IMG/VR virus record: IMGVR_UViG_2671180275_000001
Length of the DNA: 17,794 bases
Strand: one strand, 5' to 3'
From: a virus
Lineage: Duplodnaviria; Heunggongvirae; Uroviricota; Caudoviricetes
Shown: positions 6,490-17,794 of the stretch, in pieces
Position numbering within the stretch: position 1 is the stretch's first letter
Layout: every line of letters starts with the position of its first letter
Position numbers and translations under genes: made by a program
The notes under the pieces: generated by a model
Database searches by the model: none
Seen by the model: only the letters and a program-made list of their open reading frames with translations
What the model was told of the DNA's origin: nothing

Positions 6490-8448
6490 TTACGCCGTAC
6501 ATTTCACCAGACCGCGGTGATCAACTGGCGCGACACCGGCGTCAATACGCACTTTCGTTGTCACGCCATCCACACTGAAGCCCTCCATCTGATCAATATA
6601 TGGCGTATCCACACCGTTGAGATAAGCCACTTCAATCGTATCGGAGCCTTTGGACGCAGCCAGGTAGAAGGTGGTCTGGCTGTTATCATCAAGACGAGGC
6701 TCTGCAATAACGGTCGCAAAATCTTTCACCGGGTTAATAATACCTGCGTTAATGTCAGCCCCCTTGACACTTGAGGAGCGAATGACCTGGTTAGCAACAG
6801 ACTCCATCGCCGTCGGTACCAGTACGAACGCAGGACGAATATTCAGATGACGCTCCCCCTCTTTCTGAACGCGCATCAACTGGCGGGCTTTATCCAGCGA
6901 TGCCACGTCCATTGCAGCGCTCTCCAGTACGTTTGCATGTTTCGCTTTATCGAACAGACTTACATTATCTGTGGAGATTTTCGGGTTAGACGTCAGAATG
7001 GCATAAACCAGATCGGCAATGGTGGATTTCGCCGCACGGCCCAGCTTCATCGGGACATCGGTCAGCATATTCAGATCATCATTGATAATGGCCTGACGGG
7101 TGATACTGAACAGCTCGCCATAGGTCGCCAGTGCAATAGTGGCCTGTTTATCTCCGGTGGTGACGTATTTATATTCCGCCCCTTCACGCACCTGACGCAG
7201 AGCACTGAAGCCCCCCATACCCACACGATGGGCAATTTTAAAATCAGACAACTGACCTTTCCGCGTCCACTGTTCATAGGTTTCAGGAGCATCTTCCCAG
7301 CCCTGCAGAATGGCTTTGTTCGCAACATCCAGCAGAATATTACCGAAGTCAGACGTACTGTGTGTGAACGCCGCACCGACCATCTGCATCGGGTTATAAC
7401 TGGAAACCCCAATACCCCGTTCAGTCAGTGACATACGGGCATATTCACGCAGGGTCATCCCGTTGTAGACATTATCACGTTCGGTTTTTTCAAATCCGGC
7501 ACGCGCCATCAGCGCCTGGCGGATCCCGTCCCCCACAAAATTACCGTTACCGGCATAAATATGAGCCGGGGTATTTTTATTGGATGGCGTGGACTCGCGC
7601 CCCATCTCGTTCAACAGCTTTTCGCGGGCCTGCTCCAGCGAACATTCAGGATCGGCAAGACACTGAGCCTGCAGAGTCTGATAACGCCCGCCAAACATGG
7701 CAAACAGATCATTAATACCGTTTACACGCGCTTTTTGCTCTGCCAGTACCTGCGCACGGATACTGTTTTCATCCACCACGGGTGCTGCTGCCTGCACTGG
7801 CGTCCGGGAGGCTGCAGGTTCATCATCCTGTACGCGTGGAGCACTGTTGCGTGGCGGAGTAATCATGTTTCGAATGGATTCCGGCATCTTTTTAAATTCC
7901 TCTGTACGTTTTGACTGAATACATGCCATTGCCTTAACGGCTGGCGTTACCTGATCAGCAAATCCATGTGCCAGACATTCGGCACCGGACATCCAGGTCT
8001 CATCCGCCAGCATGGCAGCAATTTCATCGGTGGTTTTCCCGGTTTTCTGTGCATAAGCGGGTAACAGAACCGCCTCAACTTTATCGAGCAGGTCGGCATA
8101 GGTGCGCATGTCCTCCGCATCACCGCCCGTAAAGCCAAATGGTTTATGAATCATCATGAAAGTGTTTTCCGGCATAATGACCGGGTTTCCCACCATCGCA
8201 ATGACCGACGCCATTGACGCCGCCACACCGTCGACATAAACGGTAATGGACGCACCATGTGTTTTCAGCGCATTAAAAATGGCGATGCCTTCAAAGACAT
8301 CGCCACCCGGTGAATTAATATGGAGATTAATGTGGGTGATATCGCCCAGTGCATTCAGATCACTGATAAACTGCTTCGCTGTAACACCCCAGAAACCAAT
8401 CTCGTCATAAATATAAATATCCGCGTCACTCTGGTGACCAGCCTGCAT
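6490..8448 (-). CDS. fused prohead protease (ClpP-like) / major capsid protein (HK97 fold), 652 aa
   Basis: N-terminus has ClpP-type motifs (IYDEIG, SPGGD, GVAASMAS, MMIHKPFG); C-terminal half has HK97-type capsid blocks (PEGAEYKY, FSITRQAIINDDL, TDTIEVAYLNG, KVRIDAGVA). Start set to the first ATG after the portal stop (MQAGHQSD...); the 739-aa track ORF would overlap the portal by about 250 nt. Confidence 0.9.
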   Translation of the reverse strand: MQAGHQSDADIYIYDEIGFWGVTAKQFISDLNALGDITHINLHINSPGGDVFEGIAIFNALKTHGASITVYVDGVAASMASVIAMVGNPVIMPENTFMMIHKPFGFTGGDAEDMRTYADLLDKVEAVLLPAYAQKTGKTTDEIAAMLADETWMSGAECLAHGFADQVTPAVKAMACIQSKRTEEFKKMPESIRNMITPPRNSAPRVQDDEPAASRTPVQAAAPVVDENSIRAQVLAEQKARVNGINDLFAMFGGRYQTLQAQCLADPECSLEQAREKLLNEMGRESTPSNKNTPAHIYAGNGNFVGDGIRQALMARAGFEKTERDNVYNGMTLREYARMSLTERGIGVSSYNPMQMVGAAFTHSTSDFGNILLDVANKAILQGWEDAPETYEQWTRKGQLSDFKIAHRVGMGGFSALRQVREGAEYKYVTTGDKQATIALATYGELFSITRQAIINDDLNMLTDVPMKLGRAAKSTIADLVYAILTSNPKISTDNVSLFDKAKHANVLESAAMDVASLDKARQLMRVQKEGERHLNIRPAFVLVPTAMESVANQVIRSSSVKGADINAGIINPVKDFATVIAEPRLDDNSQTTFYLAASKGSDTIEVAYLNGVDTPYIDQMEGFSVDGVTTKVRIDAGVAPVDHRGLVKCTA

Positions 8449-8461
8449 CCTGAACCAGGAA

Positions 8462-9970
8462 TTATTCTTCGGACTGGTCGTCGGTGTGCTGCGGCTCCTG
8501 TCGTTTCGTTGCGGCACTGCTGCCTCCTTTATCACTGGCCGGATCGGTATCAAATACCAGATCCAGCTTGCGGTTTTCATCAATTTCGGCCTTGCGCCGA
8601 CGTTTGACATCATCCGGATTACGACCACCAGCACGTACCCAGTCTGATTCTGTCGCCGCTCCACCACGAATCTGGATTTTCCAGGCCTCAGCCTCCTTAA
8701 CAGGGTCAATCCACGGCATCACTGGTCCGGAATACACCGCGGTATACAGTGAAGAACGGTCAAGATCGCGGGGTAGCCTGATAACACCGGATGCCACAGC
8801 CTGTTTCAGCCAGGCACGATACATCGGGCGGGTGACGGCACCAATAAACCAGTCCTGCAGGATCAGGTAGCCATCAGTAGACTCAACCAGTTCCTGACGC
8901 TGGGCGCTGTAAGTGCCGTTATAGTTGCGTGCCGTACTGGAAAAACTCAGACGACTGCCCGCCGCCACGGCACGCAACTGACCATTACGAAAAGTTTCAA
9001 GGTTAGGATTGGGACGATCCGACTTCACCATTCCGATTTCTTCGCCGGGTTTCAGATCGTCGTAAATAATGCCTGGCTGAATGGTAAGCTCGCGTTCATT
9101 CTCCTTGCTGTCATTACCATCCGTTTCATAGCTCTGTCCGTCGCCTTTCCGGATGTACATCCCCAGAGCAGCGGCGATCCTTGCTGCAGTCAGCTCAGAA
9201 TCTTCATACTCTTTCAGGGCGCTGAGGCGGATCAGCACACCGGACAATAAAGACGTCCCGCGCATCTGGTGCAGACGTCGAACAAATTTAAGATGCAGCA
9301 TTCGCTCTGCATCCACTTCTTTGGTTTCCATCTGCCGTCCGGATACAGGACGACTTTTATACACCAGATATTTTTCGGGACGCCCCCAGTCATCAACAAA
9401 CACGCCCTGATTCAGCCTGTTGCTCTCATCACTGGTCATGGGAATAAAGTCCGGCTCGAGCGCCTCCAGCCAGAAATGAACACCGGCAGAAGGCGTCAGG
9501 CTGTTTATGCGCCCGGAAACCATCTGGGCAAACACCTCACCATCGCGCAGCCAGGTACGCAGCATCAGACGTTCCAGCATCGGACGGGTAAACTGCCCGG
9601 TGACTTCCGGACTGACAGACCATTCACTCCATCGGGTACGTATCTCCGCTGCCAGGTCACGGGCAATGGCACCATTGCGTAATACCGGATGTGGCTCGAC
9701 AATAATCCCGTTTTTCCCCACCACCCGTTCTTCCAGCTTGTCAAATACACCAATGACCAGATCGTGGTTGTTATCAAGGTAACGGGCCTGCTCACGTAAC
9801 GACACGGCCCCGTACTGGCTTAACTGGTCGGCAGTTCGGTTCTCCCGTCGGGCTTTGTGTGTCCGCGTCGTTTTTACGGCCTCATAAGCTTGGATCACCG
9901 CTCGGGAACGCAGCCTTGCCGCTTTCCATCCTGGTGAAAAAACGCCAATCACATCATCAAGAATTGCCAT
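8462..9970 (-). CDS. B: portal protein, lambda gpB-like
   Basis: 502-aa ORF from MAILDDVIGVFSPGW with GAGG 5 nt upstream. Position between the W-like gene and the protease/capsid gene; length and overall composition resemble lambda B (533 aa). ATG overlaps the W-like stop (TGATG). Confidence 0.88.
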   Translation of the reverse strand: MAILDDVIGVFSPGWKAARLRSRAVIQAYEAVKTTRTHKARRENRTADQLSQYGAVSLREQARYLDNNHDLVIGVFDKLEERVVGKNGIIVEPHPVLRNGAIARDLAAEIRTRWSEWSVSPEVTGQFTRPMLERLMLRTWLRDGEVFAQMVSGRINSLTPSAGVHFWLEALEPDFIPMTSDESNRLNQGVFVDDWGRPEKYLVYKSRPVSGRQMETKEVDAERMLHLKFVRRLHQMRGTSLLSGVLIRLSALKEYEDSELTAARIAAALGMYIRKGDGQSYETDGNDSKENERELTIQPGIIYDDLKPGEEIGMVKSDRPNPNLETFRNGQLRAVAAGSRLSFSSTARNYNGTYSAQRQELVESTDGYLILQDWFIGAVTRPMYRAWLKQAVASGVIRLPRDLDRSSLYTAVYSGPVMPWIDPVKEAEAWKIQIRGGAATESDWVRAGGRNPDDVKRRRKAEIDENRKLDLVFDTDPASDKGGSSAATKRQEPQHTDDQSEE

Positions 9971-10182
9971 CAGAACCTCGCCAGCCGGTACCCGGGATGC
10001 CCCCGTCGTCGTGTAATCAGAGCCGCAAGGCGGCGCTCCCACTCCTGCCGCCCCTGCCGGATCTCAGATAAGTTTTCCATGGTCATCTGCTGACCATTAA
10101 AAGTGACGGATTTTCCGTCCAGCACTGCCATTTCAGCTTCCGTATAACGCTGAATCATGGCTTCAATATCATTCTGATTCAT
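9970..10182 (-). CDS. W: head-tail joining protein, lambda gpW-like
   Basis: 70-aa ORF (MNQNDIEAMIQRYTEAEMAVLDGKSVTF...RRRGHPGY). Lambda W is about 68 aa and ends ...QRRRGPAGFYV. ATGA overlap with the terminase stop, as for lambda A-W. GGAGG lies 6 nt upstream. Confidence 0.6.
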   Translation of the reverse strand: MNQNDIEAMIQRYTEAEMAVLDGKSVTFNGQQMTMENLSEIRQGRQEWERRLAALITRRRGHPGYRLARF

Positions 10183-11291
10183 AACCATCCTCCGGAAGTC
10201 AGCCAGGGGTTAACATCGTCAGTTACTGTTTTCTTCCGTTTTTGTTTTTTAACAGGCGTGGATACCGGTTCCGGTGTGGGTGACGGTTCGGTACTGTCCG
10301 GGACACACTCCAGCCAGGTTTCCCGGCTCGCCCACTCCGGTGCATCCGGCCAGCGGATCTTTTCGTATCCATGCAGAATGACCAGAGCCTCGGCATACAC
10401 CATCAGGTCAAAAGCTTCGTTGGCACCGCGACCCGGCTTACTCCATTTCCCGTCACTGCTCCGCTCTTCATACGTCAGTTCGTCGTAAAACCAGCTCCCC
10501 AGCCAGTCAGGGAAATGCACATAGCCGGGACCTGGCGAGTCACGCCATAACGCGTTATTCACCCTGTCTTTCAGGGCATCCGTCTGAAGAAGCCAGAGCG
10601 GTACATCACCTGCGGCCTGCGCCCGTCGGCCCGTTCGTCCGGTGTTATCAGGGAATGTACGGGTGATCAGTTTTGCGCGCCGGATGCTGTCGCCCTTAAA
10701 CAGGTAAATACGTTTACCAAGGCCATCACGACGGCAACGACGCCAGAATTTATAGGCATTATCAGTGACCCCGTCTTCACCGCCGGAGTCCACCGCCATT
10801 GCCATCAGTCGCATTTGTTGAGAAGGATCGGAGGCCAGCGGCCAGCTTTTATGAAAAACATCCGTCAGCAGGACATCCCAGTCTTCCGGATAGCTGGCCG
10901 GATCAATTCGCTGGCTCTCCCCGTCGCTGTCACCGCGCAATGACTGCGTGATGTTGTAACGATCAATAATCCAGCGTTCGCCACGGCTGCCATAGCCCGT
11001 TACCTGAACCACAAAACGGCGATGACGTCCCGCCTGCACATCCACTGTCGCCACAAGGAAATTAACGCCATCCGGCACACTGCGGGAAGGAACTGGCTCT
11101 GCCCGCTGCTCAAGCAATTCACTTTTTCGTTGCTCCATGCTGGCGCGGGGAAGATAAGGTAATCCCCAGTCGGTATTGATAACCGTCTTGAGTGTCTCTT
11201 CACTTCCGGTTGTCTCGTATTCCTGTTCTGCAGTAAGCAGTTTGTAAACGAGTTGCGAGAGTGTCTGATAAGCAGCTGCCGGCCCCTCCAT
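10179..11291 (-). CDS. A: terminase large subunit, gpA family, C-terminal portion only (5-prime truncated; probable pseudogene)
   Basis: 370-aa ORF matching the C-terminal part of lambda gpA (LVATVDVQ vs LTAGIDSQ; AVDSGG vs WDTGG; NEAFDLMVYAEAL vs NEALDCFVYALAA). Frame is closed by a stop 11 codons upstream of the ATG; no SD; upstream DNA is AT-rich and non-coding. No Walker-A N-terminal domain. Confidence 0.8.
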   Translation of the reverse strand: MEGPAAAYQTLSQLVYKLLTAEQEYETTGSEETLKTVINTDWGLPYLPRASMEQRKSELLEQRAEPVPSRSVPDGVNFLVATVDVQAGRHRRFVVQVTGYGSRGERWIIDRYNITQSLRGDSDGESQRIDPASYPEDWDVLLTDVFHKSWPLASDPSQQMRLMAMAVDSGGEDGVTDNAYKFWRRCRRDGLGKRIYLFKGDSIRRAKLITRTFPDNTGRTGRRAQAAGDVPLWLLQTDALKDRVNNALWRDSPGPGYVHFPDWLGSWFYDELTYEERSSDGKWSKPGRGANEAFDLMVYAEALVILHGYEKIRWPDAPEWASRETWLECVPDSTEPSPTPEPVSTPVKKQKRKKTVTDDVNPWLTSGGWL

Positions 11292-11313
11292 CCAGGAAGA
11301 AGTAAATAAAAGG

Positions 11314-11345
11314 TAACTAAATGATTATAAATAGTTATTTAGTTA
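11314..11345. repeat. AT-rich inverted repeat TAACTAAAT-N14-ATTTAGTTA next to the terminase truncation point
   Basis: Perfect 9-bp arms at about 11314-11322 and 11337-11345, within 25 bp of the ATG at 11291. Confidence 0.4.
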
Positions 11346-11659
11346 TACTACCTCCTACATAGTCCAAGATTTAGTACCTGCTTAAACGATAAAAAAAGAA
11401 ACAAAAGCAGCAATATTAATTAAAAGCTGAATGATGATGGGGGTACGCTTGTGTCTGATTCCGGTAACGCGGTGGATTAATCCCAGTATTTCGGCTTCTG
11501 TCATTGTGCCCCCATCGCGCTGGTGAAGAAAACAAGCTCAGATTTTTTGTAAAGAATCTGTCACGCTAAAAGATGTCGAACAAAAAATAACCTTCTTCAT
11601 CATCTTTTTCACATCAAAATAATTAAAAACAATCACTTACGCACATGATGATGATGACG

Positions 11660-11760
11660 ATAAAATCAAAAAAATGCGCTTTTTTCCGCGCCGCCCGCCC
11701 CGTGTTCAGGCCCACCCCACCAGGAGGACCCGCAAAAAAGGCGGCTGGTGCCGCCTTGTT
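11660..11760 (-). repeat. conserved ~100-bp element, copy A (terminator plus conserved distal block)
   Basis: Aligns at roughly 85% identity with 14198-14299 (ATAAAATCAAAAAATGCGC...TTTTTCCGCGCC...CCGCCCCGTG...CAGGCC...ACCCCACCAGGAG...AAAAAAG + hairpin). Identity is by eye. Confidence 0.6.
11733..11756 (-). terminator. intrinsic terminator after the second protease/capsid gene
   Basis: Minus strand GGCGG-CACCAG-CCGCC followed by TTTTTT, starting 6 nt after the stop at 11762. Confidence 0.6.
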
Positions 11761-11761
11761 G

Positions 11762-13651
11762 TCATAGTGAATCTGTCCCGCCTGATTTGACCATACCGCG
11801 ATAATCCAGAGCTGCCACACCTGCATCAATACGGACTTTCCAGGCCACGCCGTCAACGATAAAACCTTCCTGCTGTTCAAGGTAAGGCTCGTCATTGCCA
11901 TCAAGATAAGCCACCTCGATTGTGTCAGTTCCCTGTGCGGAAAGCATGTACCATTGTTTTTCGCTGATATCATCAAGGCGGGGATCGACGATGATATCAA
12001 GTAGCTTGTGGTACGGGTTAAAGATCCCGCTGTTTTTATCAGCCCCGAAAGGTGCGGTTGAGTTAATCATCTGCAACGCGCGATCTTCCAGTGCTGCCGG
12101 AACTAAAAGGAATTTAGGCGCAATATTCAGCACTTCGCCATTTTTGTCCTTCTGTGTGCGCATCAGGTGACGTGCTGCACTAAGTCCCGATGTTGTCAGT
12201 CCTGCTTCAATCAGGTTGCTGTGTTTTTTGTCAAACAGCGTTATTCCGTCAGAAAGTTTTACGTTGCCTGTAAGCACCAGATTAACCAGATTTCCCACCG
12301 TTCTTGATGCTGCACGGCCCATAGCCATTGGCACCGTTGATAACTGATCAAGGTCATCATTGATTATCGCCTGGCGGGTAATGCTGAAAATATTCCCGTA
12401 AGTAGCCAGCGCGATGGGTTCACCGCGATCGCTGGTGGTGATGTATTTATATTCTGCCCCTTCCGGCACTTTGCTTAACGTAGAGAAACCATTCAGGCCA
12501 ACGCGGCGGGCTTCACGAAAGTTTGAAAGGGAACCTTTTTTCGTCCACTGGCGGAATGTTTCGCCGCTGTGCTCCCAGCCTGCAAGCACTGATTTTTCAG
12601 CGCCACCAGCAAGGATATCGGTAAAATCGCTGCTGCTGTGGTTGAATGCCGCGTTTACTATCTGCGAGCGTGTGCCGTAGCTGCCCGTGCTTATACCACG
12701 ATGGGTTAATGATGCCTGTGCCATATCGAAAAGACTCATCATGGCGTAAGGATTACCGCGTTCGGCCCGTTCGTGACCAAGACGCGCATTAAGCCCCTGA
12801 CGCATGGCATCGCCAGTTATATTGCCGTTATCCGTGTACGCGTAGTAAAGATTTGCGGGGGTGGTTTTGTTTGTTGGCGTTGATTCTTTACCCATAGCGA
12901 GTAAAAGGCGTTCGCGTGCATTCTCAACGCTACATTCTGAATCCGCAAGACAACTTATAGCCAGGTCGTTATATCTTCCGTTGAAGGTGCCAAACAATTC
13001 ACGGATTCCGTTAAGTCGTTCCTGTTCGCCACTGCCAGTTTTCTGGCTGATCATGCTTTTAATTTTTTCCGGCATATTTGAAAAATCTCCGATTCGTTTT
13101 GATTCAATTCGGGCCATTGCTGTAATCGCGGGTATAACCTCATCTGCGAAGCCGTTAGCCTTACACTCATTGCCATCCATCCAGGTTTCCGCCTCCATCA
13201 TGGCGGTGATTTCCTGTTTGCTCCTGCCCGTTCTTCCGGCGTAGGTTTCTGCCATCGTGTCGCCCAGCTTGTCCATCAGGTCAGCAAAGCGGCGAACGTC
13301 GCCCGACACTCCGGCAGTAACACCACGGGGGGTATGTATCATCATCATCGCGTTTTCAGGCATAACGATGTGATCGCCACACATGGCAATAAACGAGGCC
13401 ATAGAAGCCGCCATGCCCTCAATGTGTACAATTTTCTTTGCCGGATGATTTTTCAGGGCGTTATAGATAGCCAGCCCTTCAAAGATGTCGCCACCAGGTG
13501 AATGGATGCGAAGATGGATTTCAGACGCATTACCACACGCGTTGATCTCGTCAGTAAGTGCCGATGCTTTTACACCGTACCCGCCGATCTCGTCATAAAT
13601 GCGCACATAGACAACATCTGCCATAGCCTTAATGGAAAACCATGTTTTCAT
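11762..13651 (-). CDS. second fused ClpP-like protease / HK97-fold major capsid protein (629 aa), divergent paralogue of 6490..8448
   Basis: Same domain order and motifs (RIYDEIG, HSPGGD, GMAASMAS, MMMIHTPRG, PEGAEYKY, FSITRQAIINDDL, TDTIEVAYLDG, KVRIDAGVA). AGGAGA lies 6 nt upstream of the ATG at 13651, which overlaps the stop of the upstream small ORF (ATGA). Confidence 0.85.
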   Translation of the reverse strand: MKTWFSIKAMADVVYVRIYDEIGGYGVKASALTDEINACGNASEIHLRIHSPGGDIFEGLAIYNALKNHPAKKIVHIEGMAASMASFIAMCGDHIVMPENAMMMIHTPRGVTAGVSGDVRRFADLMDKLGDTMAETYAGRTGRSKQEITAMMEAETWMDGNECKANGFADEVIPAITAMARIESKRIGDFSNMPEKIKSMISQKTGSGEQERLNGIRELFGTFNGRYNDLAISCLADSECSVENARERLLLAMGKESTPTNKTTPANLYYAYTDNGNITGDAMRQGLNARLGHERAERGNPYAMMSLFDMAQASLTHRGISTGSYGTRSQIVNAAFNHSSSDFTDILAGGAEKSVLAGWEHSGETFRQWTKKGSLSNFREARRVGLNGFSTLSKVPEGAEYKYITTSDRGEPIALATYGNIFSITRQAIINDDLDQLSTVPMAMGRAASRTVGNLVNLVLTGNVKLSDGITLFDKKHSNLIEAGLTTSGLSAARHLMRTQKDKNGEVLNIAPKFLLVPAALEDRALQMINSTAPFGADKNSGIFNPYHKLLDIIVDPRLDDISEKQWYMLSAQGTDTIEVAYLDGNDEPYLEQQEGFIVDGVAWKVRIDAGVAALDYRGMVKSGGTDSL

Positions 13652-13842
13652 AGCCAGTCTCCTAACGTTGCCCTGTACCAGTATTCAACCGCGCTTCTCG
13701 CAATCTGCCCTTTCGTGGGTACTGGCATTCCAGGGTGATTACTTTTAATGAACTGCTGATAGCGTTCTATCTTTTCCATAGTTCCGGCGTCTATGTGTAC
13801 CGTGGCACTTTTATCCGGCTTTCTGGTGTTGTTCTCTGGCAT
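13648..13842 (-). CDS. small protein (64 aa) translationally coupled to the second capsid gene; possible ribbon-helix-helix fold
   Basis: Start at internal ATG (MPENNTRKPDKSATVHIDAGTMEKIERYQQFIK...GQIARSAVEYWYRATLGDWL) with GGAGG 7 nt upstream. Strand-helix-turn-helix pattern is a guess from residue periodicity. Confidence 0.45.
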   Translation of the reverse strand: MPENNTRKPDKSATVHIDAGTMEKIERYQQFIKSNHPGMPVPTKGQIARSAVEYWYRATLGDWL

Positions 13843-14033
13843 AAATCCGCCTCCGTTTTGATTAACGGGCATCATTATTGATCGACAAAAGTAATAGATA
13901 AATCATTTTCTACCTGAAAATCAGATTATGTTTTTTCTGATTATTCTCAGAGAGGCAAAGCCATTGACGCATTTTTGCTATTGAAGCAATATTAAGACTC
14001 GTCATCATGGCGATAAAAACTCCTTTGTCGTGT

Positions 14034-14074
14034 AAAAGCGCCTCCGGTAACAGCAATCGGGGGCGCTTTTTTTT
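14034..14074 (+). terminator. plus-strand intrinsic terminator-like hairpin in an intergenic region
   Basis: Plus strand GCGCCTCCG-GTAACAGCAAT-CGGGGGCGC (9-bp stem including one G-U pair) followed by T8. In the minus orientation only TTTT follows. Confidence 0.5.
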
Positions 14075-14197
14075 GCGCCTGTTTTTTTGTAAATGTTTTC
14101 GGGAACGTTCCAGTGATGAACAAAAAACAACCTGATTCGACACTAAAAATTTTTATTCCTCAATATATCAATAGCTTATAGTGGTGGTGATGGTGCC

Positions 14198-14299
14198 ATA
14201 AAAATCAAAAAATGCGCCTTTTTCCGCGCCCCTCCGCCCCGTGGACAGGCCACCCCCACCAGGAGTACCTACAAAAAAGCCGGATTTCTCCGGCTGTTG
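14198..14299 (-). repeat. conserved ~100-bp element, copy B (terminator plus conserved distal block)
   Basis: Second copy of the element at 11660-11760; directly 3-prime of the PerC-like gene. Confidence 0.6.
14272..14296 (-). terminator. intrinsic terminator after the PerC-like gene
   Basis: Minus strand AGCCGGA-GAAA-TCCGGCT followed by TTTTTT, starting 5 nt after the stop at 14301. Confidence 0.6.
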
Positions 14300-14300
14300 A

Positions 14301-14573
14301 TTAGCTGTCTGGGTAATTACGCCATATTTCATCGCTTACACCATCTATACCCATTTCAGCATAAGTGCGATCGACTACCTTTCTCAGGTCTCCGAAGTTA
14401 TCCGGCGGCTCCGGTGGCCTCTGTGCCTTCCTGGAACATTCCAGCCGTCGCATCGTAACCTGATGCCGTTCCTTGTCTGTCTCCACCAGCTGCATGACTT
14501 CACCCCATCGCGCCGCCGCCCTCCGGTAAAATCCTTTCGCCTCGAGTTCCTCCGCTATGCGGTCATGTATCAT
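14301..14573 (-). CDS. PerC-family-like small transcriptional regulator (90 aa)
   Basis: N-terminal IAEELEAKGFYRRAAARWGEVM matches the AExLExKG-(F/W)-RRAAxRW signature I associate with PerC/Pch proteins. ATG at 14573 with GGAGAG upstream. Confidence 0.5.
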   Translation of the reverse strand: MIHDRIAEELEAKGFYRRAAARWGEVMQLVETDKERHQVTMRRLECSRKAQRPPEPPDNFGDLRKVVDRTYAEMGIDGVSDEIWRNYPDS

Positions 14574-14748
14574 CGCCTGACTCTCCGGTTTTTACGTTGA
14601 TGGTTGTTACCTGTTCCGCTTCGGCAATCTCCCGTTCTGTCAACGTGGCAAAGTTTGCCGCCGCTGTGGTCATGAATGCGCTTATCAGTTCGGGATGCTC
14701 CTTCGCGTATCCTTCCCCAGCGTGGCGGTCTATTACCCTGATTGCCAC
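14563..14748 (-). CDS. small acidic hypothetical protein (61 aa); frame and start uncertain
   Basis: Protein-like composition (MAIRVIDRHAGEGYAKEHPELISAF...); GTG start without a clear SD. An overlapping 77-aa Arg-rich frame (14570..14803) ends in an ATGA overlap with the PerC-like start and could be the real gene instead. Confidence 0.3.
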   Translation of the reverse strand: MAIRVIDRHAGEGYAKEHPELISAFMTTAAANFATLTEREIAEAEQVTTINVKTGESGDDT

Positions 14749-14785
14749 CTTTAAGGCGTGCTCTGTCTCTGCGCATTTTGGTTAT

Positions 14786-14990
14786 CTCCTCACTCATGCT
14801 CACTTTTACACCTCACTTTTTAAAGCGTCTCGCTTCGTCTCACTTGATATTTTTTGATGCTTTATGTGTGTGTTTCATAAGGATTTTTTTACTCCTCACT
14901 TTTGAGCATGTATACAGGTGAGAAAGTGAGTAATCGTGTTAATATTTTGTAAAAACCTCACCATTACTCACTTTTGCTACTCACTTTTTA
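14786..14990. repeat. iteron-like direct repeats (CTCACTTTT) flanking an AT-rich spacer; candidate replication origin
   Basis: At least six direct copies of (C)TCACTTTT plus one inverted copy (GTGAGAAAGTGAG) around an AT-rich stretch at about 14846-14892, immediately 3-prime of the helicase-like gene. Confidence 0.5.
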
Positions 14991-16388
14991 CAGTGGTCCT
15001 ACATCATCACCATCAATGTAAATCACGGCGTCTTTTTCCAGTTTGGCTAACCATCGCCGCATATTTTTCACGTCATACCCAAGCCGTTTCATGTCATCAC
15101 GTAACAGCGGGATCGTGCACTTGTCGCCGTTCTGTGTGCGTGAACGGATGCACCCCCATAGTGCGGTATGGTTTTCCGTCTTGTTGCCTGCCTCCTCGAT
15201 GCGTTCCAGTTCAACGGGAGGGCGCGGCTTATCCACCACCACCAGCGACGTGATTAACTCCCCGTCAGCGTCGGTAAACAGCTCCACCACGCGTAAGTCA
15301 TATGCGGCTTCTTTGAGTTCCTCCGCGTCCTTCATTTTGGTGCATGAGATAACCAGCGCTTCGCTTCCTGCGTCCTCCCTGCGTATCCGGTATTCAGCAT
15401 CCAGCGAAGCACGAAATGCACTGGAACCGCGCGCGCCTTTCGTCTCATCCTTGCCGGAATGGTGAACCACCAGCACCGTGGCCCCTGTGCGTCGTTTCAG
15501 TTCGTCACAACCACGGATAAACGCCCCCATATCACGGGAATCATTTTCATCATTCCCACCAAAGCAACGCGCCAGCGTATCCAGAATAATCATGCGTACA
15601 GGTTTACCCGTTTCCCGCTCCACCTGACGGGCAGCGATAACCATTTCATCAACATCAAGCGGGGCAGCCGGAAAGATGGGGCGGTTTACCAGATACAGAT
15701 TTTTCACCTGCTCATCGTGCACAACCTCCCAGGCTTTTACACGACGCGGAACACCTATACCGCCTTCACCAACCACATAGAGAACCGCACCATGTGCAAC
15801 CCTGCGGCCTCCCCACTGGCGACCAGTGGCAACATGGCACGCCCACGATCCGGCAAGGAATGATTTATAGGACCCGCTAGCCCCGTATATGCTGCACAGC
15901 GATACCGCCGGAATAATCCCCTTAACCACGTAATCAAGTTGTGTGTCGTATCCGGCAGATCCCACGCTCATTGGTAGCGTGGTTTTTCGCTGGTGGTGTT
16001 TTTCTTCCCCTGGCTTTTTCCCCCGCTCCCGTTCCAGATATTCGCGCCAGTTCTCCCGCTTCTGGCTGTGCATCCCTTCGGGGTAATAATTCGCATCAGT
16101 TACACCCGCCGCCGCCAGCTTGTGCGCAATGGCATTAATATTTGATGGCCTGATGTGGCCTGCCTTGTACAGCCGGACACAATAGCGCCCCTCGTCGATG
16201 ATTCTCAGGTCTGCCAGTTCATCCAGTTGATCATCAGCCAGCACAACGGGAGGCACATTATCGCCAGCCAGTCGCCCGTCCTGTTCCTGCCACTGTTTCG
16301 CATGTGCCCAGGCATCACTACCCGCAAAAATAATGACTTCGGTCATCTTGTCGTAAGGCTGTTTTTTTAAGTTCGGTGCGCTTTTCAT
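14988..16388 (-). CDS. replication protein: RepA/DnaB-like RecA-fold P-loop helicase (AAA_25-like) with an N-terminal domain of unclear type
   Basis: Walker A YGASGSYKSF and Walker B MIILDTLARCFGGNDEND, with LVVHHSGKDETKGARGSSAF downstream, as in RepA-type hexameric helicases. ATGA overlap with the upstream 99-aa ORF. Confidence 0.75.
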   Translation of the reverse strand: MKSAPNLKKQPYDKMTEVIIFAGSDAWAHAKQWQEQDGRLAGDNVPPVVLADDQLDELADLRIIDEGRYCVRLYKAGHIRPSNINAIAHKLAAAGVTDANYYPEGMHSQKRENWREYLERERGKKPGEEKHHQRKTTLPMSVGSAGYDTQLDYVVKGIIPAVSLCSIYGASGSYKSFLAGSWACHVATGRQWGGRRVAHGAVLYVVGEGGIGVPRRVKAWEVVHDEQVKNLYLVNRPIFPAAPLDVDEMVIAARQVERETGKPVRMIILDTLARCFGGNDENDSRDMGAFIRGCDELKRRTGATVLVVHHSGKDETKGARGSSAFRASLDAEYRIRREDAGSEALVISCTKMKDAEELKEAAYDLRVVELFTDADGELITSLVVVDKPRPPVELERIEEAGNKTENHTALWGCIRSRTQNGDKCTIPLLRDDMKRLGYDVKNMRRWLAKLEKDAVIYIDGDDVGPL

Positions 16389-16684
16389 TTCTTGCCCCTG
16401 AATCCGTTAATCATGGTTTTCAGCTTCTGGATGTTTGCCCGTGCCCTGGCGTTGCTGGTGGGCACGTTATGCGGCGCGGTCTGTACCAGAGAAAAATCAC
16501 GCCGGAACTGATAAACAGGCATCACGCAATCATATTCGTAACCTTCACGGCGGTAAGTTACGCACCGTCCCGCCACGCCCTTAATCATTACCGTACCGCC
16601 GTACTGGTCGCGGTAAATATCACCGCGCGTAAATTTAGGGTGAGTGTTGCCACTGGCAGTTAAGCCAGAATATTTAAGTTTCAT
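16385..16684 (-). CDS. hypothetical protein (99 aa)
   Basis: ATG start; stop overlaps the helicase start (ATGA). No recognised motif. Confidence 0.5.
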   Translation of the reverse strand: MKLKYSGLTASGNTHPKFTRGDIYRDQYGGTVMIKGVAGRCVTYRREGYEYDCVMPVYQFRRDFSLVQTAPHNVPTSNARARANIQKLKTMINGFRGKK

Positions 16685-16689
16685 TATTT

Positions 16690-16923
16690 TTATTCTCCGG
16701 TGTGCTGTTCTTTATATCTGTCGTGCAATAGATCTATTTCTTGCAGTTCCATTATTACATGCTCAAGAATCGTTATTAATGCCGTGGCAATTCTTGATTT
16801 TTGTTTGTCGCGTTCATTGTCGCCAAGTGTTTCAAGCCATATGCGCAATATTTCCATCATGCTTTCACTGTGAGAAAGTGCAAGAAATGCGCGGTCTATT
16901 GTTTCAAGATAAATATCACGCAT
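16690..16923 (-). CDS. hypothetical helical protein (77 aa)
   Basis: ATG one nt after the stop of the upstream ORF (TAAtATG); GGGGA upstream. No recognised motif. Confidence 0.45.
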   Translation of the reverse strand: MRDIYLETIDRAFLALSHSESMMEILRIWLETLGDNERDKQKSRIATALITILEHVIMELQEIDLLHDRYKEQHTGE

Positions 16924-16924
16924 A

Positions 16925-17359
16925 TTAATCCCCGTCCGTTGTTTTTCTTAAAACAGCTTCTGTCACGAAATCGGCATAGTTAGCGGCAATATCAAGAATA
17001 TTTAGCCCTGTATCTCTGTGCTCATCAGTGCAAAGAAAGAAAAAAGCCACCCGCATAATTTCAGATATTAACGAAAGCGCATCAACCGCATCATCAGGAA
17101 CGCCGGAAAATTCTTGTTTCAGGGAATTAAAACGATCATCACGCATAACCCCCCCATTTTCACAATCAGCAACAAGAATATTTTTAGCGTCATTCAGTGA
17201 CCGCGTTGCGGTGTATCGGATACATTCCAGGGCGAATAGTGTGTATTCTTCCCGTCCTTCCTTTTGTGCAAGCTCTGCTGTGCATTCAATATCAATAAGC
17301 GCGTGCATCAGCGTAGTGAGCGCGGCGGCTGCTGCGTCCGGTGTGGTTTTATTGCACAT
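16925..17359 (-). CDS. hypothetical protein (144 aa)
   Basis: Start at internal ATG (MCNKTTPDAAAAALTTLMH...) with GGAGGT 6 nt upstream. No recognised motif. Confidence 0.5.
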   Translation of the reverse strand: MCNKTTPDAAAAALTTLMHALIDIECTAELAQKEGREEYTLFALECIRYTATRSLNDAKNILVADCENGGVMRDDRFNSLKQEFSGVPDDAVDALSLISEIMRVAFFFLCTDEHRDTGLNILDIAANYADFVTEAVLRKTTDGD

Positions 17360-17540
17360 GGCACACCTCCTGACGAATACGGGCGGCGAATACAGCAACA
17401 CAACCGGACGGGCAACGGCTACGCGCTTCGCGTTCCGTCCAGGCGGTTACGTGGATGATTTGAGATTCTGACGCGCCAAAGATGATAAAGCGCCAGATAA
17501 ATGCGGTTTGAGAATGTACAAGGGTAGGGATAGTAGCCAT
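17349..17540 (-). CDS. hypothetical small protein (63 aa) with a Cys-x3-Cys ... Cys-His pattern
   Basis: Internal ATG (MATIPTLVHSQTAFIWRF...RCPSGCVAVFAARIRQEVCHVQ) with GGAGG 7 nt upstream; first gene after the terminator-like hairpin at about 17702-17725. Confidence 0.4.
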   Translation of the reverse strand: MATIPTLVHSQTAFIWRFIIFGASESQIIHVTAWTEREARSRCPSGCVAVFAARIRQEVCHVQ

Positions 17541-17701
17541 GTTGGCAGCCTCCTCAGTGTGGTTAAGATAACCGCCACGCAAAAGGCTAATTTCGCTGGT
17601 GGCGGACTGTACAGGGTTAGCCTTACCGGACACTGAAGAAACCGGCGCGGATTGCTCCGCCCCCGTACAGCCCACCATTGATAAGGTGTGACTATGCGGC
17701 A

Positions 17702-17725
17702 CAAAAAAACACGCGGGGCGCGTGC
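17702..17725 (-). terminator. intrinsic terminator-like hairpin closing a transcription unit that lies beyond the window end
   Basis: Minus strand CACGCG-CCC-CGCGTG followed by T7. Confidence 0.4.
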
Positions 17726-17794
17726 TGTGCGCTTCAGTTGTTTTCAGGAGGCTAATCCCGACACCCGTTTTATGAGGTGCGCGGGAATCATAGC

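Follow-up and report, generated by a model that had tools for sequence, protein, structure and literature searches.

The repeated element in this viral DNA is read, with a probability of about 0.85, as two lambda-type cos sites of a helper-embedded PICI lying in the gpA gene of a prophage, and the two sites most likely serve two terminase specificities. The window (the whole stretch of DNA that was analysed, 17,794 nucleotides) carries the two copies, A and B, in direct orientation, 2.54 kb apart and on either side of a capsid cassette. Regions homologous to both are found directly upstream of the small terminase gene (terS) in lambdoid phages, and the pair is conserved among related islands, in which the two members always differ from each other in one short block.

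A direct repeat on either side of the capsid cassette

The initial annotation had recognized two copies of a ~100-bp element, and the repeat is real. A repeat finder placed it at 11646-11744 (copy A) and 14185-14283 (copy B), 99 nt each, as the single outstanding direct repeat, with 74% identity ungapped over 99 nt. With gaps the identity is 82-83%, as given by cross-matches between the window and its relatives L003 and L004 (E 4e-20 to 1e-26). A 32-nt core pattern has two exact matches in the window against 0.00 expected (0/200 shuffles matched).

Pairwise alignment showed that a weaker similarity runs ~110 bp further to lower coordinates, giving ~220 bp per copy. This extension ends at TTTTTTGTAAA, at ~11544 and ~14082, and the whole similarity spans TTTTTTGTAAA .. 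GAACAAAAAA.AACC. Identity is uneven, ~90% around the cosQ-cosN core and ~60% beyond a trinucleotide block, and the two copies diverge at 11644-11659 versus 14181-14197. A longer duplicated segment of uniform identity had been named beforehand as evidence against a discrete element; the segment is longer, ~220 bp, but its identity is not uniform.

Copy A is located just 3' of a minus-strand gene for a ClpP-capsid fusion (11762-13651) and copy B just 3' of the PerC gene (14301-14573). These ORFs bear out the earlier placement of the copies behind minus-strand genes for "capsid 2" and a PerC-like protein. The bracketing of the capsid-2 cassette by direct repeats was also seen correctly, and the same arrangement is found in relatives.

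Identity of the two copies

Base-by-base alignment with lambda cosQ and cosN identifies copy A as a cos site on the minus strand, the downstream ("D") site, which extends from cosQ to the distal end of a cosB-like region (11540..11731). Its cosQ (11725..11731) is GGGTCCT, the canonical lambda heptamer, at a lambda-like spacing to the nick position; GGGTCCT stands at the place of cosQ in lambda. The cosN sequence GGGCGGGCGGCG (11689..11700) aligns as the equivalent of the 12-nt lambda cohesive end GGGCGGCGACCT, and the predicted nick falls between 11701 and 11700. At +42 to +57 from this nick there is an ATC-repeat block, CGTCATCATCATCATG (11644..11659). Copy B, the upstream ("U") cos site (14082..14270, minus strand), has AGGTACT as cosQ (14264..14270), GGGCGGAGGGGC as cosN (14228..14239), which differs from that of copy A at 4/12 positions, and an ACC-repeat block, GGCACCATCACCACCAC (14181..14197), at +43 to +59. 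The ACC and ATC blocks thus have about equal offsets from the predicted nicks, and both are roughly at the position of R3 in lambda.

Read 5' to 3' on the minus strand, each copy opens with a hairpin rich in G+C and its T6 run, after which copy A has GCGGGTCCT and copy B GTAGGTACT. After ~24 nt and CACG comes GGGCGGGCGGCG or GGGCGGAGGGGC, respectively, and then CGGAAAAA.GCGCATTTTT, the trinucleotide-repeat block and an A+T-rich stretch finishing ..TTTTTTGTTC..TTTACAAAAAA. The joined lambda ends read ..ACGGGTCCTTTCCGGTGATCCGACAGGTTACG on the left of the junction and GGGCGGCGACCTCGCGGG.. on its right; the lambda record NC_001416 starts at GGGCGGCGACCT, which is preceded by ..TTACG when the ends are joined. 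Alignment of the joined lambda ends and four lambdoid phages with the window showed the cosN core ACG^GGGCGG in both copies, as at the lambda left end, and agreement with lambda in sequence and spacing across the cosQ heptamer, the ~24 nt and ACG^GGGCGG.

BLAST against phage genomes located the homologues of these regions. Copy A is 85.8% identical over 195 nt to the region of VT1-Sakai between Rz and the small terminase gene, and its homologue in mEp043 and mEp213 lies in the 36-150 nt before the terS start codon, where those records begin. The homologue of copy B is directly upstream of terS in 1720a-02 (89.9% over 168 nt) and, similarly, in CP-1639. Overall the phage homologues sit 119-245 nt upstream of terS. 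The deposited mEp460_4F5 record ends 4 nt from the lambda-equivalent nick. Because of the lambda match and these phage homologues upstream of terS, the conserved block is assigned to cosQ-cosN and the weaker extension to the cosB side. An additional function distal to the hairpin had been suspected earlier; of the roles then suggested, a packaging site fits, but an RNA, processing, antitermination or promoter function is unsupported.

The AGGTACT heptamer of copy B is a second natural cosQ allele. At least 119 IMG/VR stretches contain it together with the cosN core, and in most loci examined it lies 119-199 nt upstream of the TerS start, with TerL next where the sequence is long enough. The idea that this heptamer marks copy B as a decayed cos was rejected because AGGTACT is a common phage allele upstream of terS. 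The upstream cos of L004, an otherwise near-identical relative, has the canonical GGGTCCT instead.

The island and its insertion in gpA

The two sites belong to an island. On gene content and insertion point, the window from ~11307 rightward is identified as a ~10-kb Gram-negative helper-embedded PICI in the gpA gene of a lambdoid prophage. The in-window part (11307..17794, minus strand) holds genes for a RepA-type helicase and PerC, the capsid cassette, and two RNAs, C4 and isrK; the integrase end is outside the window. The complete island, ~9.7 kb in total with integrase and HTH gene present, is found in L004 and L003; over the capsid-cos part these two relatives share 97-98% identity with the window. 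L003 has the same island inserted in tqsA. The features by which PICIs are recognized, namely an integrase, an AlpA-like HTH protein, a primase/replicase and genes mostly in one direction, are all found across the window, L004 and L003, the window itself contributing a RepA-type AAA_25 helicase and PerC. Insertion in the same orientation in a prophage late gene, which defines the helper-embedded type, is seen at gpA. HE-PICIs, described in 2023, target prophage late genes, gene A included (PMC10111431), and the island-split gpA agrees with this published idea.

The gpA fragment next to the island (10179..11306, minus strand) is the C-terminal nuclease part of the large terminase, without the ATPase domain (Pfam GpA_nuclease 3e-83); its 370-aa ORF, 10179-11291, is the nuclease domain only. 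Residues 330-707 of VT1 TerL map to window positions 11306-10182, so that gpA is split at about residue 330 with the junction at ~11307. With gpA split and only its nuclease domain in the window, the prophage would be without TerL until the island excises. L004, a chromosomal segment closely related to the window, has, in gene orientation, prophage cos, terS, N-terminal gpA fragment, integrase, HTH protein, BRO-N, Icd-like and DUF4222 genes, followed by RepA helicase, SSB, cos, small ORF, capsid fusion, cos, 94-aa ORF, C-terminal gpA fragment and portal.

The cassette between the cos sites (11762..13875, minus strand) consists of a 75-aa ORF (13648-13875) whose end overlaps the start of the fusion of a ClpP-like protease to a major capsid protein (11762-13651; Pfam Phage_capsid_4 6e-55, CLP_protease 3e-33). 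The 75-aa protein is 36% identical in a relative and has no Pfam match. At 629 aa, the island capsid fusion shares 51% identity with its prophage counterpart, listed as a 739-aa ORF at 6490-8709. The two align from residue 84 of the prophage ORF onward, the island protein being without the first ~80 residues; this ORF is the longest possible one, with a TTG start, and the prophage capsid gene as annotated in L004 is ~64 aa shorter.

Several other features of the island were observed. The window is without ~445 bp present in relatives (window 11423-11451 versus L004 12223-12695), a deletion after which a conserved 94-aa ORF on the downstream side of copy A retains just its first ~17 codons, in ORF 11382-11504. 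This 94-aa ORF starts at +197 of copy A, which is exactly the terS start position in phages and in terS-bearing islands. A C4 antisense RNA (17595-17682, minus strand; 75 bits, E 2e-13) and an isrK Hfq-binding RNA (17704-17780, minus strand; 62 bits, E 2e-11) are side by side in the island; Icd-like and BRO-N/antirepressor genes adjoin them in relatives, and the region looks like a P1 immI or P4-like immunity module in a PICI. At 14034-14076, immediately beyond the cosB side of copy B and ahead of the small cassette ORF, a G+C-rich hairpin between an A-run and a T-run resembles a two-way terminator and gives a sub-threshold match to ctRNA_p42d (24 bits, E 0.2). Direct repeats at 14777-14825 and 14945-14993, rich in CTCACTTTT units, are found just downstream of the RepA-type helicase gene (14988-16388). 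PICI replication origins have been reported downstream of RepA-type helicase genes, and the CTCACTTTT-rich repeats are likely origin iterons.

Conservation and heterotypy of the pair

A search of IMG/VR with the island capsid gave 80 loci, the proteins being 58-99% identical. In 43 of them the two cos sites are both present and directly oriented, so the element passes the test of conservation in relatives on which the initial annotation had staked it. In these 43 the upstream site is 529-590 bp before the capsid start, and the downstream site is mostly 63-70 bp past the capsid stop, or ~850 bp past it in two. The downstream site stands alone in 22/80 loci and neither site is present in 2/80; in the remaining 13 the flanking sequence is too short to score. 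A capsid search of genome contigs returned mostly true phage capsids of other genera and no E. coli island, with the capsid-then-cos arrangement at three loci only (Kluyvera, Buttiauxella).

Removal of duplicates left 32 distinct pairs, and every one (32/32) is heterotypic at the +42 to +60 block. The downstream site has ATC repeats in 30/32. The upstream site follows the capsid: it has ACC repeats in the group with capsids at least 92% identical (mostly 98-99%), to which the window belongs, and GGCGGCGGCAGC (GCA class) in 18/19 pairs of the group with 58-63% capsid identity. The 12-nt cohesive-end equivalents of the two sites differ in the window and in 11/13 distinct pairs of the former group, and are identical in 16/19 pairs of the latter. 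Since the cohesive-end equivalents differ, productive molecules in the ≥92% lineage would be expected to have the same type of site at both ends.

Among themselves the island capsids have 62-80% identity, against 51-57% with the resident prophage capsid; on this greater mutual similarity, the idea that the cassette was recently captured from the resident prophage was rejected. Islands with 58-63% capsid identity encode their own terS at +198 of the downstream site. Among these, L133 (6475-7441) and others in L119-L156, with capsids ~62% identical, have a TerS ~65% identical to that of mEp460, with a homologue of the 94-aa ORF after the island terS; L133 shares its gpA site with the island of the window.

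Block class and TerS family

The class of the block goes together with the family of the neighbouring TerS. Among phage-like sites before terS, in a sample that was partly chosen by sequence pattern and in which related phages count as separate cases, the GCA class occurs with L004-type TerS in 25/25 and the ATC class with VT1-type TerS in 13/13 and with mEp043-type TerS in 42/43. Phage sites with 1720a- or mEp460-type TerS have ACC in all three classified. Twenty-one cases that seemed to break this rule are terS genes belonging to islands of the 58-63% group, where they are located at +198 of the downstream site.

The ATC block of copy A is as in VT1-Sakai and the Stx2a phages. The ACC block of copy B is that of 1720a-02, with a similar block in mEp460. 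The TerS proteins of VT1-Sakai and 1720a-02 are identical in the C-terminal ~90 residues and differ in the N-terminal DNA-binding domain, a pattern that is also seen between the packaging specificities of lambda and phage 21. The ATC block is put forward as a candidate TerS recognition determinant of copy A. In L004 the block of the resident prophage is of a third type, GGCGGCGGCAGC (GCA class), and the prophage TerS is only 37% identical to that of VT1; neither island site has the resident block type.

A model for packaging from two cos sites

During helper growth, the helper terminase would cut at cosN and package concatemers of the island, TerS on the cosB side positioning TerL for the cut. 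Copies A and B point the same packaging way and carry different presumed TerS-recognition blocks and different cosQ alleles. Since the blocks differ while the orientation is the same, the pair most likely opens the island to packaging by terminases of two specificities, which would mean two types of helper. In the window these specificities resemble two groups of Stx-type lambdoid phages, and in the relatives that encode a TerS the second specificity would be that of the island TerS as opposed to the helper TerS of the resident-prophage type. A stricter proposal is that the pair is obligately heterotypic, each site being matched to a different TerS family, that of a second helper or the island's own, as set by the +42 to +60 block and the cosQ allele. 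This stricter form is tentative and is given somewhat less than an even chance.

Certain observations go against a two-specificity reading. The blocks of the island sites are both unlike that of the L004 resident prophage. The upstream site can be dispensed with, as it is absent from 22/80 loci, and a molecule cut at an A-type site on the left and a B-type site on the right would have unmatched ends. A second cos is not necessarily beneficial either, as deletion of cos2 raised the transfer of EcCICFT073 (PMC6092414).

The most serious alternative is that only copy A works, copy B being either a relic inherited together with the capsid cassette or a decoy that interferes with the helper by occupying its terminase. 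The cos2 deletion (PMC6092414) and the 22 loci with the downstream site alone speak for it, as does the presence of the copy A type in nearly all relatives. So do the TerS genes encoded at +198 of the downstream site in the 58-63% group, and the way the upstream class follows capsid lineage (ACC at ≥92%, mostly GCA at 58-63%), as a co-inherited module would. Against this, the upstream site keeps an intact cosQ allele, cosN, block and distal cosB and is 90% identical to a phage cos. Its position is fixed across islands with capsids only 62% identical, and these capsids were not recently captured from the resident prophage (51-57% to it, 62-80% mutual). A single working copy is thus considered unlikely, with perhaps one chance in three or slightly less, and use of both sites by two terminase specificities is preferred.

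Hairpins, transcription and recombination

Both sites are preceded by a terminator-like hairpin on the minus strand. The copy A hairpin, AAGGCGGC-ACCA-GCCGCCUU plus T6 (11734..11757), is 3' of the capsid-2 gene and abuts cosQ; its last two stem pairs use the first two T's of T6. The copy B hairpin, AGCCGGA-GAAA-TCCGGCT followed by T6 (14272..14295), is 3' of PerC. As RNA they fold with -14.8 kcal/mol (z -5.0) and -12.6 kcal/mol (z -4.0), respectively, and 0/200 shuffles were as stable. A consensus terminator scan detected the copy B hairpin and missed that of copy A, whereas folding shows copy A to be the stronger. A G+C-rich stem-loop, a T-run and a position 3' of a same-strand gene, as expected of Rho-independent terminators, are found at both.

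The compensatory stem changes reported in the initial annotation do not hold up. Across relatives there are two unrelated hairpin families, GGCGGC..GCCGCC at the downstream site and GCCGGAG..TCCGGC at the upstream site, each stable and each keeping its own position. Pairwise alignment showed that the similarity of A and B starts only at the T-run, outside the stems.

Nor are the hairpins part of cos. Over the 40 nt 5' of cosQ, the minimum folding energy has medians of -15.1 and -12.6 kcal/mol at the island sites and -3.6 kcal/mol at phage sites; because folding is strong at the islands and weak at the phages, strong hairpins are a feature of the islands, not of cos itself. The equivalent phage position has a weak A+T-rich palindrome (AAATGATAACCATTATCATTT in VT1; GATGATAATCATTATCAC in lambda). 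Such Fur-box-like palindromes directly 5' of cosQ in lambda and lambdoids (GATGATAATCATTATCAC, AAATGATAACCATTATCATTT, TTGATAATTATTATCAAA) were located at 4196-4216 in L001, at ~48456-48473 in L006 (lambda) and in many of L169-L248; in the islands, G+C-rich hairpins occupy this position instead. Phage late transcription would have to cross cos to reach the head genes, and the island hairpins would simply end the capsid and PerC transcripts. The G+C-rich hairpins with T6 are probably ordinary intrinsic terminators of these transcripts that abut cosQ by chance.

The earlier terminator reading is therefore right in that both hairpins fold as good intrinsic terminators, but the element is not mainly a terminator. 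It is very improbable that it is chiefly a transcription signal, with a terminator and a downstream RNA-level or promoter element for the capsid and PerC operons. The strength of both hairpins with their T6, and the fact that hairpins are the rule at island sites, would suit such a signal; the block, however, is common to lambda cos and to phage sites without strong hairpins, and the two stems are not homologous. Neither copy has an Rfam match at E<=1, on which a structured RNA was rejected as the identity of the block (within the window the Rfam matches are C4 and isrK elsewhere and the weak ctRNA_p42d at 14034-14076), and a consensus scan found no promoter-like site in copy A or copy B. A small peptide or leader ORF (plus-strand ATG run, 11645-11767, 40 aa) was rejected as well, as single-base indels between A and B break every frame and at copy B a stop follows after 6 codons. 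The RNA, processing, antitermination and promoter roles offered in the initial annotation are thus dropped, and no ORF is conserved from one copy to the other.

A role in recombination or excision, with the 2.5-kb cassette moved or lost by homologous recombination or a double terminase cut, would account for direct repeats around the cassette and for relatives without the upstream site, but it is equally improbable, as only ~100 bp at ~80% is shared, a poor substrate for homologous recombination, the cohesive-end equivalents differ in the window's lineage and single-site relatives retain the capsid gene.

Significance

Two cos sites on a PICI are an already established feature. Literature searches gave no match for the conserved direct arrangement around a capsid cassette or for strict heterotypy of the pair, and none for the link of block class to TerS family or for the second cosQ allele. 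The rule of heterotypic pairs and the link of block to TerS together form a concrete hypothesis for why PICIs keep two cos sites.

Which phages can mobilize a satellite depends on its cos sites. The island is common in genomes of Shiga-toxin-producing E. coli, and both of its sites resemble cos regions of Stx-converting phages (VT1-Sakai, Stx2a phages, 1720a-02). Should both sites be functional, Stx phages of more than one kind could spread the island and suffer its interference; if the obligately heterotypic reading is true, the Stx-converting phages would be helpers of this island. The block class may serve as a simple sequence marker for predicting helper-satellite pairs, and in annotation "intergenic repeats with terminators" of this sort should carry the label of cos sites.

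Comparison with known systems

The sites in the window share with lambda cos the cosQ heptamer, the nick spacing, a cohesive end beginning GGGCGG and a place upstream of terS. They differ from it in that the cosB sequence is unrelated to the lambda R sites (R3-I1-R2-R1), the R3-equivalent block is a trinucleotide repeat of the ATC, ACC or GCA class, and the cohesive-end sequence is different.

SaPIbov5 (PMC5052747, PMC8569155) is likewise a satellite with its helper's cos and a homologue of the helper capsid, Ccm. It is a cos-type staphylococcal island from a different phylum and unrelated in sequence.

The HE-PICIs (PMC10111431) are closer: ~10-kb PICIs in a prophage late gene, in the same orientation and with their own capsid gene, gene A being a reported target. 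A cos-like sequence is common to island and helper in that work (PMC10111431). The model island 11capE differs in having one shared 258-bp cos-like sequence, with no heterotypic pair described (PMC10111431), and in the window, as judged from L004, neither site has the block type of the resident prophage.

In EcCICFT073 two functional cos sites both support transfer, and their cosQ and cosN are like those of lambda and phi80 (PMC6092414, PMC6739421). Its cosB is unlike phage cosB, and Rpp-TerS heterodimers recognize cos1 (PMC6092414, PMC6739421). A scan of the CFT073 genome showed that its sites are inverted, ~740 bp apart and flank an rpp-like gene, the gene-strand cos being directly upstream of a 144-aa gene, presumably rpp. 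The PerC gene of EcCICFT073 also ends in a hairpin, one that closely resembles the GCCGGAGAAATCCGGC hairpin preceding the gene-strand cos, and no cos follows it. A tblastn search of the window with the CFT073 rpp-like protein found no homologue at E<=1, and an Rpp-type mechanism was rejected for the window's sites. As there is no Rpp homologue and both cos regions, cosB side included, are 85-90% phage-like over 168-195 nt, the Rpp mechanism is probably not used by this island; its cosB is phage-like where that of EcCICFT073 is reported as non-phage-like and Rpp-TerS-dependent. In other respects the two islands are alike. Both are Gram-negative PICIs that encode PerC and a capsid protein and have two cos sites with lambdoid-like cosQ and cosN. 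In EcCICFT073 the hairpin GCCGGAGAAATCCGGC plus T7, the same hairpin as that of copy B, precedes the forward-strand cosQ, and cos1 has GACACCACCACCAC at the position of the ACC block of copy B. EcCICFT073 also has a 93-aa ORF at the island end, common to the relatives of the window, in which it is 94 aa long in L004.
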